DNA of 63,960 nt, filler included. It is 8 parts of 8 records of this genome, joined end to end, with 100 filler letters (N's around TTAATTAATTAA, not from the genome) between each part and the next. Parts side by side here need not be neighbours in the genome. Positions count along the whole stretch, not along the records: positions 34,041 to 41,049 come from DRR723986_9623; 7 more parts are not named here. One strand, written 5' to 3'. Shown one piece after another: positions 5,651-58,472 of this stretch. The translations under genes and the position numbers were made by a program. Below the pieces are notes generated by a model that worked only from the letters and a program-made list of their open reading frames with translations, searched no databases and was not told the origin of the DNA. Each line of letters starts with the position of its first letter. The first letter of the stretch is position 1.

Positions 5651-5750
5651 NNNNNNNNNNNNNNNNNNNNNNNNNNNNNNNNNNNNNNNNNNNNTTAATT
5701 AATTAANNNNNNNNNNNNNNNNNNNNNNNNNNNNNNNNNNNNNNNNNNNN
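5651..5750. other. Artificial contig linker (also at 11906-12005, 25255-25354, 33941-34040, 41050-41149, 49041-49140, 58373-58472)
   Basis: N-run + TTAATTAATTAA (stops in all six frames) + N-run, identical each time. Confidence 0.98.
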
Positions 5751-11905: not shown

Positions 11906-12005
11906 NNNNNNNNNNNNNNNNNNNNNNNNNNNNNNNNNNNNNNNNNNNNTTAATTAATTAANNNNNNNNNNNNNNNNNNNNNNNNNNNNNNNNNNNNNNN
12001 NNNNN

Positions 12006-25254: not shown

Positions 25255-25565
25255 NNNNNNNNNNNNNNNNNNNNNNNNNNNNNNNNNNNNNNNNNNNNTT
25301 AATTAATTAANNNNNNNNNNNNNNNNNNNNNNNNNNNNNNNNNNNNNNNNNNNNCCAGACGTGTGTAATTACGGCACGTTAAATTTATTTGGCTTGTTTT
25401 ACGTGGGTAAAAGCTTGCAAATTGTCGGTAGGGGGCTGTTTCCAGCCCCAAGCCTCCGAGACAGGTCCTAAAGACCCCAAGCGTGGTTCACTAGATAATA
25501 GACTTGCGGCCGCGAACTTCAAGCTACGATATCCGAGGCAATTGCTGAATTTCACATCTTAACCA

Positions 25566-33940: not shown

Positions 33941-34081
33941 NNNNNNNNNNNNNNNNNNNNNNNNNNNNNNNNNNNNNNNNNNNNTTAATTAATTAANNNN
34001 NNNNNNNNNNNNNNNNNNNNNNNNNNNNNNNNNNNNNNNNTTAGCATAGCTGTTAGCCTAAGGCTGTTAGCTTGCCGGGTC

Positions 34082-35109: not shown

Positions 35110-37098
35110 TTGCTGCAATTGATTTCTCGCGAAGCTGATCGTCCCGACGTTAGCGTTGTGATTGTTAATTACAACGTCAAAGATTTTCTCTTCAACTGCC
35201 TGCAGTCCCTGAGTGACGCATTCGGCAGCTTGACGGGGCAGGTGATCGTGGTTGATAACAACTCTACCGACGGCTCGCTTGAATATCTGACACCACTATT
35301 TCCGGACGTTGAGTTTGTAGCTCTGGACGAAAACCTGGGATTCGGCAAGGCCAATAATCTTGGGTTTGAGCTTTCACGCGGTGAGTTTGTTTTATGCCTG
35401 AATCCCGACACGCTGGTTAGCGAAGACACAATCGACCACATGGTCGCGTACATGCGCGCCAACCCGGATGTGGGCCTGAGTGGCTGTAAACTGTTAAATC
35501 AGGACGGCAGCTTTCAGTTGCCCTGCCGCCGTGGATTCCCGACGCCCTGGGTTTCATTCACCAAAATATTTGGGCTGCAGGCCTTGTTTCCGCGTTCCAA
35601 AGTTTTTGGGCGTTACAATCAAACCTTCCGCGATGAGAATGAGACTTACCCGGTTGATGCCGTCAGCGGCGCATTTATGTTTATGCGCAATGATGCCTTA
35701 AAACAGTCGGGTGGTTTTGATCCTGAGTTTTTCATGTATGGTGAGGATCTGGACCTGTGTTTCCGCATCGGCAAGGCCGGCTGGAAAGTGGTGTATGTTC
35801 ATTCCACTTCTGTGATTCACTTTAAGGGCGAAAGCACGCGCCGTTCCTCACTCAATGACGTGCGCGAATTTTACCGGGCGATGGAAGTATTTGTTAAAAA
35901 GCACTTCTCCTCGTCTTTTATCTTCCTGCTGTTTTTGCGGATTGGTATAACGCTGCGCTCCCTGATTGCCTATCTGTGGCAATATCGCCGGCAGTGGGGC
36001 CTGGCGCTGTTTGACTTTTTGCTGGCGAATGCGGCCCTCCTGGTTGGCATTAAATTGCGTACGGGTGAGTTTTCCGGTTTTCCGGCTTATGCTTACCCCG
36101 AAATCCCGATCGTTCCCGCGTTGATGCTGATTGCCTCGCTTCTGTATGCGGGTGAGTACTCAACTTATCAGCGCTCGTCGATCCGCAATGTCGTCACAGC
36201 TCTGATGATTTCCTTCTTTTTGCTGTCCACCTTGCCGTACTTCTTTGAAGACTATGCGATTTCGCGTGGTGTTCTCGTGATGTTCCTGGCTTTGAGTTTT
36301 GCAGGACTTGGGGCTGTGCGACTAGGGCTTTCCATTTTTGAGAAGGTTCTGGGGCGCGAGGCCGATAAGCGCATCGCAATTCTTGGTGTCAACGATGTGG
36401 CGCGCCAGCTGATGGGCGACCTGCACACAGCCGAAGCGCGTAATACAAACCTGGTGGGGCTGGTGCGCACGCGCCCCGATATTCCCGTGCCGGACTGGGC
36501 CGATCCCGTGCTGGGCGACATCACCTACCTGAACAAGATTGTGCGTGACCACGGGATAGATGAACTGATTGTAACTGACGCTGAGGTTTCGCGGGCGGAG
36601 ATGCTGCGACACATGACCGAGCTTTCCGGGCATGCACGCCGCTGGCGATTCGCGCATAGCTACGACGAAGTTATCACATCGCGAATCATTGAAAGTATAA
36701 CAGGTGTGGCTCCCGCTGCAGCGCAATATAAGATTACACGCCTTAGCAATCGTATCCTGAAACGAGTCATAGACTTGCTCGGCTCAGTTTTCCTTTTGAC
36801 AATTGGGCTACCTATCGTATATTTGACGTCCGCTGATCCGAAGATTGCGAGGCGTAAGCTGGTGCTGGTCCTCAAAGGTGACTACAGCCTCTTTGGTATT
36901 TTTCCCATGGAAGGCGACTCAAATTCGAAAATTGGCAAGATTGGATTGACGGGCCTGGCGCACATTAATAGAACCGAACAGATATCCATCCAGGCCTTAC
37001 ACAGCTTAAACGATTACTACATGCGTCACTATTCACTGGCGCTTGACTTCGAAATTTTCATCAAATTTTTCTTCCGTAGAAACAGTGGCATCGGGTAA
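35110..37098 (+). CDS. GT2 glycosyltransferase fused to membrane and degenerate sugar-transferase domains
   Basis: [30 protein letters not shown] helices; KRVIDL...GLTGLA remnant. Confidence 0.85.
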
Positions 37099-38071
37099 AA
37101 AGAACAACAATCCTGTATTGGATTTCGAAAAACCAATCATCGAACTTGAAGCCAAGGTTGATGAAATGCGCGCAATGGCCGACTCAATGGAAATCAATCT
37201 TGAGATTGATAAACTTGAGAACAAGGTCCAATTGCTGCGTAAGGAAGTGTATTCCAAGCTGACCAGATGGCAACGTGTTCAGATCGCACGCCATCCGCAG
37301 CGCCCGCAGACCCTGGACTACATAAACAGTGTGTTTACTGAGTTTGTAGAACTCCACGGCGATCGCTTCTTCCGCGATGACCCCGCAATCGTTGCCGGGC
37401 TCGCCAAGCTGGAAGGGCAAAGTGTCGTTGTTGTTGGGCACCAAAAGGGACGGGACACAAAGTCTAACGTTGAGCGCAACTTTGGTATGCCAAACCCGGA
37501 AGGCTACCGCAAGGCGCACAGACTATTTGAATTGGCTCAGAAGTTTAACAAACCGGTAATATGTTTGCTGGATACTCCAGGTGCATATCCTGGGATGGAA
37601 GCTGAAGAGCGCGGCCAGGCCGAAGCAATTGCCCGCAACCTGAAACTGATGGCCAGGCTTAAAGTGCCAATCCTCATCGTCATCATCGGCGAAGGTGCTT
37701 CCGGTGGAGCTCTGGGTGTTGGAATTGGGGATAGAATTCTGATGCTGGAAAATGCCTGGTACTCCGTCATTGCCCCAGAATCCTGTTCAAGTATTCTCTG
37801 GCGCAGCTGGGAGTACAAGGAACAAGCCGCTGAAGCGCTTAAACTGACCGCCAATGATCTCAAAAAGGTCGGGATAATCGATCGCATCGTGCCCGAGCCG
37901 ATCGGTGGAGCACATGCAGACCACGCAGCAATCTTTGCAACTATGCAGCGTGTCTTAACTGAAGAACTTCGTAACCTGGTTCAATACGACACCACGGACT
38001 TACTGGAGCAGCGACTGGATAAATTCAGCGCAATGGGGATCTGGACAGAAGTTGGCACAGCGCCGGCTTAA
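37085..38071 (+). CDS. accA: Acetyl-CoA carboxylase carboxyltransferase alpha subunit
   Basis: [34 protein letters not shown]. Confidence 0.97.
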
Positions 38072-38155
38072 TGTGGACAATACAAGTAGTTGAGTCCGGC
38101 CAGATGCGTCGGCGCGAATCTTGTCTGGTATGTCACAGTAAGGAAGTGTAAAGTA

Positions 38156-38755
38156 GTGAAAGCGATTTTCCGCTGGTTACGAAGCCTGAAAGATTGGATG
38201 GAAAGTTTTGCGGAAAAACCGTCCGCAATGTACGTTTTGTTCTTTTTAGCTTTGGCAGAGTCTTCTGTATTTCCGATTCCTCCGGATGTACTGCTAATCG
38301 CCATCGCCGTCTCGCAGCCTAAGAGGGGACTTCAGGCCGCGTTATGGTGCACCTTGGGTTCGCTGGCAGGCGGAATTATCGGATACTACATTGGATTTGG
38401 TTTGATGGAAACCATTGGCGATCCCATCATCTCTTTGTACGGGGCGGAAGCTCAGTGGGAGAAGTTCAGATTGGCATATGAAGAATATGGCAACCTGCTC
38501 CTCCTCGGCGCGGCCTTCACACCCATACCCTACAAAGTGGCTACAATCGCTTCTGGTGCCTTCGAGATGCCTTTTATACCGTTTGTTCTTATTTCAACGG
38601 TCGGTCGCGCGGGGAGATTTTTCCTCGTTGGGGGCTTAATTCGCTTATACGGAGCACAGGTCAAGGTGTTTATCGATAAGTATTTCGATATCCTGTCTAT
38701 CGTATTCATTGTACTTCTGGTGCTTGGATTCTACGTATTTAAAGTCCTACTCTGA
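38156..38755 (+). CDS. YqaA/DedA family membrane protein
   Basis: AESSVFPIPPDVLL, FTPIPYKV, GRAGRFF. Confidence 0.9.
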   Translation: MKAIFRWLRSLKDWMESFAEKPSAMYVLFFLALAESSVFPIPPDVLLIAIAVSQPKRGLQAALWCTLGSLAGGIIGYYIGFGLMETIGDPIISLYGAEAQWEKFRLAYEEYGNLLLLGAAFTPIPYKVATIASGAFEMPFIPFVLISTVGRAGRFFLVGGLIRLYGAQVKVFIDKYFDILSIVFIVLLVLGFYVFKVLL

Positions 38756-38874
38756 AGTCGCCTCGGTCCAAACCTCAGGTGCCAATCACAGCCCACACTC
38801 TGGCGTGAAATGCCTGAACAGTTACAGAATTTGAATATAACTCATGTAAAATAGTTTGAAGGGAGATACCCTAT

Positions 38875-40761
38875 ATGAATGGCAAAAATCGAATACCACG
38901 GCGCGATAATACGCGTTCCGGAAGGGTCTGGAAAAATCAACAATGGCAGCAGGAAGATTCCAGAGAACCCGAAGAAGAGCAAGGTGAAGAACAGCAGCCC
39001 GACTCACCCAATCCACCTGCCTCACCGCAGGAAGCAGCAAGCCGCCTGCCCAAGCGCAATTATGACTATGACTACGACTACGATTATGAAGATCAGGATG
39101 AGCACCAGTGGAACCGCGAAGGTGCCAATGTAGGCAATCCAAAAATTTACAGTGACCAAAACCCAACTTATGGCGGTGGTGGCGGAAACTACAATCGCCA
39201 AAAAGGTGGCGGCGGCGGTGGCGGTGGATACGGCAATCAGTCCTATCAGCGCCGTTCCTCCTATCAGCCGCGCCAACAACAGCAGTTTGAAAACCGTCAG
39301 CCACGTGAAAACTATCGTGAGCGTAGCTCCGATCGTCCAAGTGAGCGTGATGGATACCGTGATCGCGGTGCAGATCGAAGCGCCGATCGTGGTGCCGATC
39401 GCGGTGCCGATCGCGGTGCCGATCGTGGCTACAGCCGTGATTCCGCGCAGTATGAATCACGCCAACCGCGTGACAACTATCGCGCGCGTGGTGGTGACGA
39501 CTACGGTCGTGACAGAGATCGCGGTGATCGTGATCGTGGTGATCGCGATGGTGGTTACCAGCAGGATCGTGGCCAGGAACCGCGTCCACGCCGCATGATC
39601 AAACGCCGTCCGCCAGGTCCGGTACAACATTCGCATCGTGGTGGTAGTGACCAGCGTCCGGAACGCGGTGGTGATCATCGTTCGGATCGCGGTGGCTCGG
39701 GCCAGCCCTTCCATCGTCGCGACAGCTACCAGCAGGATCGCGGTGGTCAGGACCGTCGTGGTGGAGAACCACAGGCGCGTCATCAATCCCGTGGTGGTGA
39801 TCAGCCACAGGCGCGCCATCAGAACCAGCGCTTCCAGAAGCCGCGCAAACCGCAAATTACGCGCAAGGAAGCCCAGAAAAACTTCCAGAAAAAACGTCGC
39901 AACCTGCAGATTGTCTCTTTGCCACGTGCAATGGCCAAGCTGCAGTTCGGTGCTCGTAATGTAACGATCGACTTTATCCGCAATTCGCGGGTTTCAGTAA
40001 ACAACACGATTGTGTCGGACCCGAACAAGCGCGTTATTCTGTTTAAGGACCGTGTGTCGGTTGACTACATGCCGCTCAAAGCCAATCGTGCCGGCAACTT
40101 TGTAGTTCTGCACAAACCAGCAGGCCTGGTGCCGTCCAAAGAACCCAACGTCCGCACTGTGCACTCGCTGGTGCCAAACTCGGAACATTGGTACTTCCCG
40201 GCCGGCCGCCTCTCCCGCCCGATGAGTGGACTGGTAATTACTACCAATCACGAAGACCATCGCAATTCGGAGACTTCGGAGTTTAACAACCTCGAAAAAG
40301 AATATCACATTAAGGTTAACCGCATTCCCAAGCGCACGGAAATAACGGCACTTAACAAAGCGCTGCGTGCTCTTCACGACGAGAACGGCAAAGAAAGCAA
40401 AGCGACTATTCATCAGAAGAATAAACGCTCATGCTGGCTGGCTGTAATTGTTAAGCGCGGTGGCGTCAGTGATATTAACAAAGTTCTCAAGAATGCTGAC
40501 CTCGAAGTCCTGTCAATGCACCGCTATCGCATCGGAACGTTAAGCACCGATACGATTAAGGAAGGTTCATGGAAGCAGATGAATGAAATCGAGCTTGCCG
40601 AACTTCTGGGGCACGACACGACCGAGTCCTCGTACTTCTACCAGCGCCCGAGCAACGCCGATGCCGATGATGAGGATGATCACGGCCACGACGATGAGGA
40701 TCTGGACGATCTGATGGACGACGAAATCGATGAGGACATCGAAGAGGAAATGGAAGCGTAA
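38875..40761 (+). CDS. RsuA/RluB-like pseudouridine synthase homologue with long disordered N-terminus; catalytic Asp absent
   Basis: S4-like domain, LHKPAG, FPAGRLSRPMSGL (GRLD expected), KEYHIKV, HRYRIG; DRG-rich N-terminus; acidic tail. Confidence 0.8.
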   Translation: MNGKNRIPRRDNTRSGRVWKNQQWQQEDSREPEEEQGEEQQPDSPNPPASPQEAASRLPKRNYDYDYDYDYEDQDEHQWNREGANVGNPKIYSDQNPTYGGGGGNYNRQKGGGGGGGGYGNQSYQRRSSYQPRQQQQFENRQPRENYRERSSDRPSERDGYRDRGADRSADRGADRGADRGADRGYSRDSAQYESRQPRDNYRARGGDDYGRDRDRGDRDRGDRDGGYQQDRGQEPRPRRMIKRRPPGPVQHSHRGGSDQRPERGGDHRSDRGGSGQPFHRRDSYQQDRGGQDRRGGEPQARHQSRGGDQPQARHQNQRFQKPRKPQITRKEAQKNFQKKRRNLQIVSLPRAMAKLQFGARNVTIDFIRNSRVSVNNTIVSDPNKRVILFKDRVSVDYMPLKANRAGNFVVLHKPAGLVPSKEPNVRTVHSLVPNSEHWYFPAGRLSRPMSGLVITTNHEDHRNSETSEFNNLEKEYHIKVNRIPKRTEITALNKALRALHDENGKESKATIHQKNKRSCWLAVIVKRGGVSDINKVLKNADLEVLSMHRYRIGTLSTDTIKEGSWKQMNEIELAELLGHDTTESSYFYQRPSNADADDEDDHGHDDEDLDDLMDDEIDEDIEEEMEA

Positions 40762-40797: not shown

Positions 40798-40832
40798 AAA
40801 GCGCGGGTCATTAATTTGACTCGCGTTTTTTT
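40798..40832 (+). terminator. Rho-independent terminator
   Basis: GCGCGGGTCA-TTAATT-TGACTCGCGT followed by a T-run. Confidence 0.8.
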
Positions 40833-41149
40833 GTTTAAACAATTGGGGCTGCGTGCGAACGGACTTTACAAGCGTTGCGGGCTTGAGCTGCGCTCGCCCT
40901 GTTACAGCCATTTTGTTCGTTAGTGGGTGTCGGGCTAGAATTGATTTAGTCTGTCGCTGAGCGCTAATTTGCAGTCAAAAGACCTCCAGTCTTTGCATCA
41001 AAAATCCACCAACCCCCACCAGCTGTTAGCCGTAAATGCACAGGTCTTTNNNNNNNNNNNNNNNNNNNNNNNNNNNNNNNNNNNNNNNNNNNNTTAATTA
41101 ATTAANNNNNNNNNNNNNNNNNNNNNNNNNNNNNNNNNNNNNNNNNNNN

Positions 41150-49040: not shown

Positions 49041-49140
49041 NNNNNNNNNNNNNNNNNNNNNNNNNNNNNNNNNNNNNNNNNNNNTTAATTAATTAANNNN
49101 NNNNNNNNNNNNNNNNNNNNNNNNNNNNNNNNNNNNNNNN

Positions 49141-58338: not shown

Positions 58339-58472
58339 CAGGGGCACTGCTCGATAGGTTTCTTGCCTGTATNNNNNNNNNNNNNNNNNNNNNNNNNNNN
58401 NNNNNNNNNNNNNNNNTTAATTAATTAANNNNNNNNNNNNNNNNNNNNNNNNNNNNNNNNNNNNNNNNNNNN

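Follow-up and report, generated by a model that had tools for sequence, protein, structure and literature searches.

The closest described relatives of the gene considered here are the Escherichia coli pseudouridine synthases RsuA, RluB, RluF and RluE (1ksk, 4lgt, 3dh3 and 2olw), which combine an S4 domain with a catalytic domain. In RluB, as reported in PMC3919597, the catalytic residue is Asp110, the R108A mutant keeps 0.6% of activity, motif III forms a wall that binds the RNA in its major groove, and Arg17 anchors an RNA loop. The idea of a dead synthase serving as a scaffold is not new: human RPUSD3 and the mt-LAF3 protein of Trypanosoma have the pseudouridine synthase fold with a broken motif II, act without catalysis and are proposed to be RNA scaffolds (10.1101/2023.02.23.529727), and Chlamydomonas Maa2 is a synthase-related protein recruited to pseudouridine-independent RNA processing (PMC8394491). 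A literature search with most subscription papers outside its coverage found non-catalytic synthases in organelles only, and no bacterial family of this kind. The gene described here, which very probably encodes a non-catalytic synthase in bacteria, lies on the forward strand at 38875..40761 of a 63,960-nucleotide stretch of DNA (the window), is complete within a single contig (34041-41049), has an open reading frame (ORF) of 628 amino acids (aa) with zero internal stops, and was assigned to the RsuA family by domain and alignment searches.

The encoded protein shares the S4 and catalytic-domain architecture of the E. coli RsuA family at 17-23% identity. Its S4-like domain (approximately residues 346-400; 39910..40074) aligns with those of RsuA, RluB and RluF and keeps Arg361, the counterpart of RluB Arg17, with the Pfam S4 model reaching an expect value (E) of only 0.07, below its cut-off. 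The catalytic fold (approximately residues 408-578; 40096..40608) matches PF00849 above the cut-off (E 9.1e-07; 29.6 vs 26.8), and the AlphaFold2 (AF2) model of residues 338-592 has a predicted local distance difference test score (pLDDT) of 91 and a predicted template modelling score of 0.85. The closest structural matches are RsuA, RluF, RluB and RluE (VIA Z 17.2-17.9), including 1vio (Z 17.9, root-mean-square deviation 2.4 over 159 aligned residues) and 3dh3 (Z 17.8), with a Foldseek E of 6e-16 to RluF; by comparison with the Z of 17-18 for RsuA-family chains, those of RluA, RluC, RluD and RPUSD4 reach 10-12, and no RluA-family NCBIfam match is listed for the protein. Nevertheless, it scores under all NCBIfam cut-offs (TIGR00093, 71.3 vs 109.3 bits; RluF, 50.6 vs 318; RsuA, 50 vs 275).

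The active site is degenerate within this fold, which is predicted to be intact. The protein has in common with the E. coli enzymes HKPxG (HKPAG, residues 413-417), the GRL of motif II with its flipping Arg445, and the motif IIa tyrosine (Tyr477, 40303..40305, equivalent to RluB Tyr140, within KEY 475-477), but not the catalytic aspartate or motif III. Motif II reads GRLS (40204..40215), Ser447 (TCC, 40213-40215) aligning to Asp110 of RluB, Asp107 of RluF and Asp102 of RsuA; motif III (residues 528-536; 40456..40482) reads RGGVSDINK where RluB has EGRNREVRR, with Ser532 in place of Arg194 and Asn535 in place of Arg197. Position 535 is one that we take, by motif, to correspond to Arg181 of TruB. 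The R181M and R181A substitutions in TruB are reported to lower activity more than 20,000-fold (PMC3973310), and by these and the RluB data the window protein is very probably enzymatically dead. The initial annotation had read motif II as AGRLSRPMSGL without its Asp, motif III as degenerate, and the S4-like domain, HKPxG and KxY as retained, and the alignments agree with it on each point. Its reading of the protein as a pseudo-enzyme is well supported: the nearest orthologues read GRLS, GRLS, GRLT, GRLN and GRLT at motif II, rather than the GRLD of an intact enzyme, and the gene is under purifying selection. Its further proposal, an rRNA chaperone or condensate scaffold, is still an inference.

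The family to which this protein belongs was found in two bacterial orders. The nearest genomes to the window (L001 and L002, 89% domain identity; L003, Candidatus Kapaibacterium sp., 60%) share its gene order and fall within one order, Kapaibacterium being placed by NCBI in Bacteroidota. Among 1.84 billion representatives, 6411 matches were found, and the best 150 of these were used for a FastTree tree of 155 rows that adds three further proteins and two RluB-type paralogues, and omits one 94-aa fragment and one RluA-type protein. This tree separates 52 degenerate proteins (support 98) from 103 canonical ones; Asp is present in 101/101 canonical proteins, and nine of the 52 degenerate proteins have Asp and five Glu. 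A profile of the clade matched 7/301 genomes of the phylum at E <1e-60, all in the two orders, and the 12 next-best loci that were read are canonical. In the order of G003, which holds Ca. Kapaibacterium, the gene is single copy in 68 of 101 genomes, with a contig-cut fragment in one more, and in the second order (that of G052) it is present in 17 of 21; degenerate motifs were found in 85 genomes of the two orders. A profile search of a 5.8-billion set added one full-length degenerate protein and one fragment among 66 new matches. In an IQ-TREE LG+G4 tree built on the 67 rows left by thinning at 68% identity, in which the outgroup is not one side of a branch (RluE falling among the active rows), the members of both orders form one clade (97/97), and each order is recovered at 100/99 or 100/100; alone, this tree would allow for long-branch attraction between the two orders' clades, both of which sit downstream of accA.

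Comparison across the family identifies where the decay is shared. The expectation that orthologues would lack the catalytic Asp holds for most members but not for all: among the 68 of the first order, position 447 is Thr in 12, Ala in 11, Glu in 11, Asp in nine, Leu in six, Pro, Gly, Ser and Asn in four each, Arg in two and Val in one, whereas Asp447 occurs in 0/17 members of the second order. Motif III is instead the lesion found throughout, with Asn531 in 0/68 and Gly529 together with Arg532 in 0/68. Arg445 remains in 24/68, Tyr477 in 62/68 and a basic residue at 535 in 23/68 (not the window protein), while the full combination of Arg445, Asp447 and Arg535 is found in a single member of the order (G426). 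All 20 members with Asp or Glu at 447 keep the basic residue at 535, and 19 of these have Cys at 445. By contrast, 25/25 active-looking comparators keep R445, D447, Y477, E528, G529, R532 and R535. Because motif III is intact in 0/68 while Asp survives in 9/68, the common lesion is that of motif III, with motif II decaying later and separately. At least four changes of the Asp state and at least three of the flipping-Arg state map onto the LG+G4 tree, gain and loss not being told apart in these counts.

The gene is nevertheless maintained where it occurs. The ratio of non-synonymous (dN) to synonymous (dS) substitution rates in the domain lies within 0.017-0.171 for 20 of the 23 independent pairs, the other three being saturated, with many dS values above 1 making these ratios rough. 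Between the window and G001, it is ~0.05 for the domain (dN 0.064, dS 1.19) and ~0.11 for the N-terminal arm (dN 0.16, dS 1.5). The gene is therefore under purifying selection.

An active paralogue accompanies it, as the initial annotation had proposed should be checked: an intact RluB-type gene is present in 18/18 carrier genomes examined among relatives of the window's genome, and G001-G003 also contain several other PF00849 genes. Long PF00849 genes in G001 and G002 (L014, L015 and L017) have open frames of 538-594 aa; the one that was read, L017, encodes an RluA-type synthase whose C-terminal part has methyltransferase-like motifs, and two copies of equal score are present in G002.

The nearest intact relatives are short, active-looking synthases of the same class (L030, L031, L061-L071 and others; GRLD, EGKNR), which have in common with the window protein the S4 start SLxRALSKLG and the yqaA and NUDIX neighbours, but differ in having all catalytic motifs intact, a length of ~245 aa and no arm. 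Since these short synthases share the yqaA (6/25 loci) and NUDIX (8/25) neighbours, their context points to descent of the family from a second RsuA-family enzyme, with the LG+G4 tree singling out no one sister group among them. In the history envisaged, this enzyme, sited beside yqaA and NUDIX genes, would have lost motif III and gained its arm once, before the split of the two orders, after which the Asp and flipping Arg would have decayed several times separately. Three genomes of the first order also carry an extra short intact GRLDKASEG synthase elsewhere (L136, L137 and L138), which groups with enzymes of other lineages and was possibly acquired sideways.

A further difference from the E. 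coli enzymes is the 334-aa arm, together with the acidic tail. Residues 1-334 (38875..39876) form a low-complexity region predicted to be disordered, and the full-length AF2 model has pLDDT <50 at residues 1-334, 589-621 and 623-625. The initial annotation had described some 340 N-terminal residues rich in R, G, D, Q and Y, and an acidic C-terminus, and had suggested structure and disorder prediction; the folded core at pLDDT 91, with the arm and most of the tail below 50, fits this description. Over residues 1-340, the composition is R 17.4%, G 13.8%, Q 12.1%, D 10.6% and Y 5.6%, with 17 hydrophobic residues, and the repeats that had been described are present as YDYDYDYDY (39061..39089; 6-bp unit, 4.8 copies), as poly-G in two runs and as ADR[GS] in five units (39361..39425; 12-bp unit, 5.4 copies). 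The tail (residues 595-628; 40657..40758) has 22 D/E in 34 residues and is predicted to be disordered. That orthologues keep the long N-terminal region is also the case: counted from the first start codon, extensions are at least 80 aa in 60/61 complete genes of the order (median 213), as against no more than 30 aa in 24/25 comparators, and these arms average R 16.7, G 14.4, N 8.9, Q 8.9, D 8.6, P 8.2 and Y 7.6%.

Short motifs stand out in the arm and after the domain. WNREGAN (residues 79-85; 39109..39129) is a conserved candidate binding motif specific to the subclade; in the full-length AF2 model it is undocked (pLDDT ~30). The SSYFY aromatic motif (residues 585-589; 40627..40641) is characteristic of the 17-member subclade containing the window protein, in which an aromatic motif (SYFY here) directly follows the domain, often together with WNREGAN, and an acidic tail occurs in some members only; residues 581-590 average pLDDT 55. 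In another subclade (L023, L024, L027, L076 and L079), the arm motif DDDSQL(K)FFG replaces WNREGAN.

Features suited to RNA binding are kept, with the basic residues redistributed. The median net charge of the domain is +13 in the family and +12 in active relatives, Arg361 is kept in 45/68 and Arg or Lys at 351 in 96%. Basic residues have been lost or relaxed at 426, 445, 530, 532 and 535, and gained, comparing the family with active relatives, at 463 (85% vs 0%), 480 (100 vs 40), 518 (96 vs 64), 539 (90 vs 4) and 552 (81 vs 24); the new basic positions that are conserved are 463, 480, 483, 518, 539 and 552. This pattern suggests a binding surface under selection with a changed mode of binding, because motif III is lost and the new basic positions are conserved.

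The explanation favoured here, to which we give about even confidence, is a dispensable non-catalytic scaffold or chaperone that binds RNA, most likely ribosomal RNA (rRNA) in assembling ribosomes. That the window protein binds RNA is likely; that it acts in ribosome assembly or maturation is a more tentative proposal, by analogy with better-known enzymes. The S4 domain and still-basic catalytic domain would bind structured RNA without isomerising it, probably in an altered mode; the R/G/N/Q/D/Y-rich arm would make many weak RNA and protein contacts, raising avidity, and could drive condensation; and WNREGAN and SYFY here, or the terminal amphipathic helix of most other members, might dock on a partner or the membrane. 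Several precedents are consistent with such a role. Firstly, RsuA is reported to bind a 16S assembly intermediate via its S4 domain (PMC7356742). Secondly, inactive RsuA is described as relieving some growth defects (PMC10525438), and inactive RlmB as stimulating 50S assembly (PMC11194073). Thirdly, the features of RPUSD3 and mt-LAF3 recur in this family, namely an intact fold, lost catalytic residues, retention by selection and an active paralogue: RPUSD3 is without the Asp, like the window protein, and mt-LAF3 has the Asp but is without the flipping Arg, like the family's GCLD subclade (10.1101/2023.02.23.529727). The likeness has limits, as both belong to the RluA family, are mitochondrial and arose independently, and mt-LAF3 is essential, whereas the window gene has been repeatedly lost; Maa2 differs in acting in chloroplast intron trans-splicing, with its own enzyme activity stated as unclear (PMC8394491).

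A number of observations weigh against this explanation. The ancestral contacts are relaxed at Lys355 (basic in 63%), Gly357, Arg426 and Arg445 (35%), and because none of the 68 retains motif III, RNA is not simply bound in the ancestral way, nor is binding to the ancestral rRNA site assured. The ancestor is assignable to none of RsuA, RluE, RluF and RluB (26-39% identity to all four), and the short active-looking relatives match none of the four NCBIfam equivalogs tested. The chaperone role is not general, because inactive RluC is reported to give no help to 50S assembly (PMC11194073), and growth at high streptomycin is still lost with inactive RsuA (PMC10525438). The gene's neighbours (accA, yqaA, NUDIX and an ABC transporter) give no ribosome-assembly signal beyond truA, which is nearby in 8/17 second-order loci; in the first order, 48 of 68 loci have at least one of the four neighbours in the fetched flanks (accA 37, NUDIX 20, yqaA 13, reverse ABC transporter 11). 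Among the 32 genomes of this order without a match, the accA loci of 20 were read, and 18 have no homologue (of the others, one has a gene start at a contig end, and one locus ends just after accA); because the usual flanks are directly joined in at least seven of these 20, the gene is dispensable in several lineages. Three of the 52 clade proteins (P0009, P0014 and P0038) keep Arg, Asp and Arg, and are not callable as dead from motif II alone. The long arm alone, lastly, is no marker of new function, because active RluB-type enzymes of the phylum also carry long R/G-rich arms: eight such enzymes, picked for their length, have 250-496-aa R/G/S/P-rich arms that are poor in N, Q and Y, with motif II intact. 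This rules out the long arm as a unique feature of the dead paralogue.

Two groups of proteins touch on these points in their own right. L086 (G426), L139 (a fragment from G401), P0009, P0014 and P0038 have kept Arg, Asp and the motif III Arg but lost EGxNR; if any member has residual activity or could revert, these are the best candidates. The active-looking RluB-type enzymes L164-L171 and L173 have R/G/S/P-rich N-terminal arms of 250-500 aa, that of L166 consisting of many SKDRPF repeats.

The alternative that fares best, unlikely though we consider it, is that the family anchors an RNA body, with the dead domain binding RNA, the arm condensing, and a terminal motif tethering the whole to the inner membrane or a partner. 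By analogy, and with no more confidence, it would do the job of the disordered half of proteobacterial RNase E. It draws on the C-termini of the family: in 50 of the 67 complete ones, a variable linker leads to a terminal amphipathic helix of WQxLYxRWFKS type (hydrophobic moment of at least 0.55, with a median of 0.68 among the 50), compared with 10/86 C-termini of neighbouring proteins. Of these 50 helices, 46 are net positive and 40 beat composition shuffles at p <=0.05, and the same measure gives 0.84 for E. coli FtsA and 0.65 for the RNase E anchor. RNase E is reported to be anchored by an amphipathic helix (PMC3991390), and Rho of the same phylum to condense with RNA via a disordered region (PMC13269538). 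RNase E/G is 534-559 aa, with no long tail, in 4/5 carrier genomes, and the N/Q/Y-rich arms (8.9, 8.9 and 7.6%) are unlike those of active RluB-type enzymes. However, the helix is missing from the window protein and its 17-member subclade, and 10 second-order members checked have neither it nor the aromatic motif; it may dock on the protein's own domain instead; the counts come from related members and are not phylogenetically independent; and the measure is only 0.48 for E. coli MinD. A short RNase E/G may also be the norm for this phylum, which weighs against this alternative. Membrane anchoring is consequently a lead, from predicted helices, for most of the family and not for the window protein. 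Bacteroides Rho and RNase E do resemble the window protein in pairing a folded RNA-handling domain with a long disordered region that carries short motifs, but this is analogy only, as both keep an active enzyme and have no homology to it.

A fuller version of this idea, which we rate as less likely again, is a dedicated RNA-body organiser, in which a dead synthase would grip rRNA, a prion-like arm would condense, and a membrane helix would be present in most members. If true, these bacteria would have their own counterpart of the mitochondrial RNA granule, and living genomes would preserve all stages of active-site decay (the intact triad, Asp but no flipping Arg, Glu, and no acid). Two side observations concern the same features: the last 24 residues of L075, L083, L084, L098, L101, L119 and others form basic amphipathic helices of the WQxLYxRWFKS or WQKLKKQLLGG type, resembling the FtsA and RNase E membrane anchors; and the RNase E/G of G052 (L203) is a 924-aa open frame, whereas four genomes from the other order have ~550 aa.

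It is improbable that the protein is an adaptor like RPUSD3, which would pair up with a modification enzyme (the active RluB-type paralogue or some other one) and deliver it to its RNA. The RluB-type enzyme in all 18 carriers checked and the truA genes of the second order would fit, as would the proposal that RPUSD3 is needed for RPUSD4 and TRUB2 activity (10.1101/2023.02.23.529727); but RluB-type genes also occur in genomes without the pseudo-enzyme, are not linked to its gene, and RluB is reported to be active alone on a 21-mer stem-loop (PMC3919597). Co-option of the fold for a role away from RNA, in DNA or nucleoid binding or as a protein-protein hub, seems no more probable. Such a change could account for the loss of motif III and the redistributed basic surface, and for the family-specific aromatics that are conserved (Trp439 84%, Trp521 87%, Trp566 97%), with lipid and membrane genes as neighbours. 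Yet the S4 domain and Arg361 are retained, the neighbourhood is inherited from active-looking relatives, and R/G/Y-rich arms typically bind RNA, which weighs against it.

Less probable still is activity from a rewired site, in which an acid at 533 replaces the Asp, or another RNA reaction is catalysed, with a few members being ordinary active synthases. Position 533 is indeed Asp or Glu in 38/48 members without Asp or Glu at 447 (the window protein included), compared with 5/20 with it; Tyr477 is widespread and the window protein keeps its flipping Arg; and the basic 535 of the 20 acidic members, and the Arg, Asp and Arg of P0009, P0014 and P0038, could be those of working enzymes. Against this, an acid at 533 is not new, as active RluB has Glu195 there, 11 different residues occupy 447, Cys, Pro, Val, Ala or Gly stands at 445 in 44/68, 19 of the 20 Asp/Glu447 members are without the flipping Arg, and 10/48 have no acid at either 447 or 533. 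Lastly, decay restricted to this strain, or an error of sequencing or assembly, might be suspected in a 7-kb piece of a mixed assembly, with a gene lost in some lineages, but this is ruled out by the TCC at 40213, which as the initial annotation remarked is two changes from GAC and which recurs in G001 and G002 (G003 has ACG and G389 AAT), by the open frames, by the dN/dS of ~0.05, and by the 85 genomes.

The non-catalytic scaffold or chaperone preferred here bears on whether rRNA-modifying enzymes matter for their chemistry or their binding, a question probed so far, in the work reported in PMC11194073 and PMC10525438, by engineered catalytic mutants. The family is a natural experiment, with selection kept after loss of the active site in two orders, and offers a natural decay series with short intact relatives as controls, in a lineage known here from assembled genomes alone. 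Databases (JGI) name members 'pseudouridine synthase' or '23S rRNA pseudouridine2605 synthase'; these active-synthase labels are probably wrong, and the protein should not be filed as such because it lacks the Asp and motif III and scores under the cut-offs. It may not be the sole dead RsuA-like family in bacteria, because the ESM Atlas lists S4-only clusters from Pseudomonadota that may be another, independent one. These matches to residues 338-595 of P0001 (0.89-0.91) are 'hypothetical' 243-280-aa clusters, with S4 but no pseudouridine synthase Pfam domain, mostly from Pseudomonadota; searches for them in a plasmid collection and sequence records instead gave four loci that on reading had GRLD, and two S4 matches that were unrelated or intact.

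The contig carrying the gene encodes, in order, a reverse-strand glycosyltransferase, a glycosyltransferase/sugar-transferase fusion, accA, a yqaA/VTT membrane protein and the 628-aa ORF. Both accA (37043..38071), the upstream neighbour kept in 37/68 loci of the order, and the yqaA/VTT gene (38090..38755), which also adjoins active-looking relatives, are on the forward strand. A Shine-Dalgarno-like element, TTTGAAGGGAGAT, precedes the ATG (38855..38867, forward strand), and the same 13-mer is found in the window, L001, L002 and L003; a promoter scan directly upstream of the ORF found none. Downstream on this strand lies an intrinsic-terminator-like hairpin (40798-40829) with a T run (40798..40839), a consensus match only, such sites being not above chance in the region (four found vs 3.2 expected). 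The fusion (35110-37098; 662 aa) joins a family-2 glycosyltransferase to a CoA-binding-like domain and a piece of a bacterial sugar transferase, and is conserved upstream of accA in L001-L003.

The window itself joins eight contigs through seven 100-base N/TTAATTAATTAA linkers (5651-5750, 11906-12005, 25255-25354, 33941-34040, 41050-41149, 49041-49140 and 58373-58472), and ORFs that cross these are artefacts. The G+C content of the contigs ranges from 0.48 to 0.69, and is 0.50 in the piece with the 628-aa gene; the pieces past 41150 (0.61-0.69), in the translations of which purL-like, der-like and RND efflux genes were read, look foreign to it, so that the assembly appears mixed. A further irregularity of labelling is that L002 (CAYULF010000011.1) is recorded as Hyphomicrobiales, yet falls in the Ca. 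Kapaibacterium order and is syntenic with the window, and this label is probably wrong.

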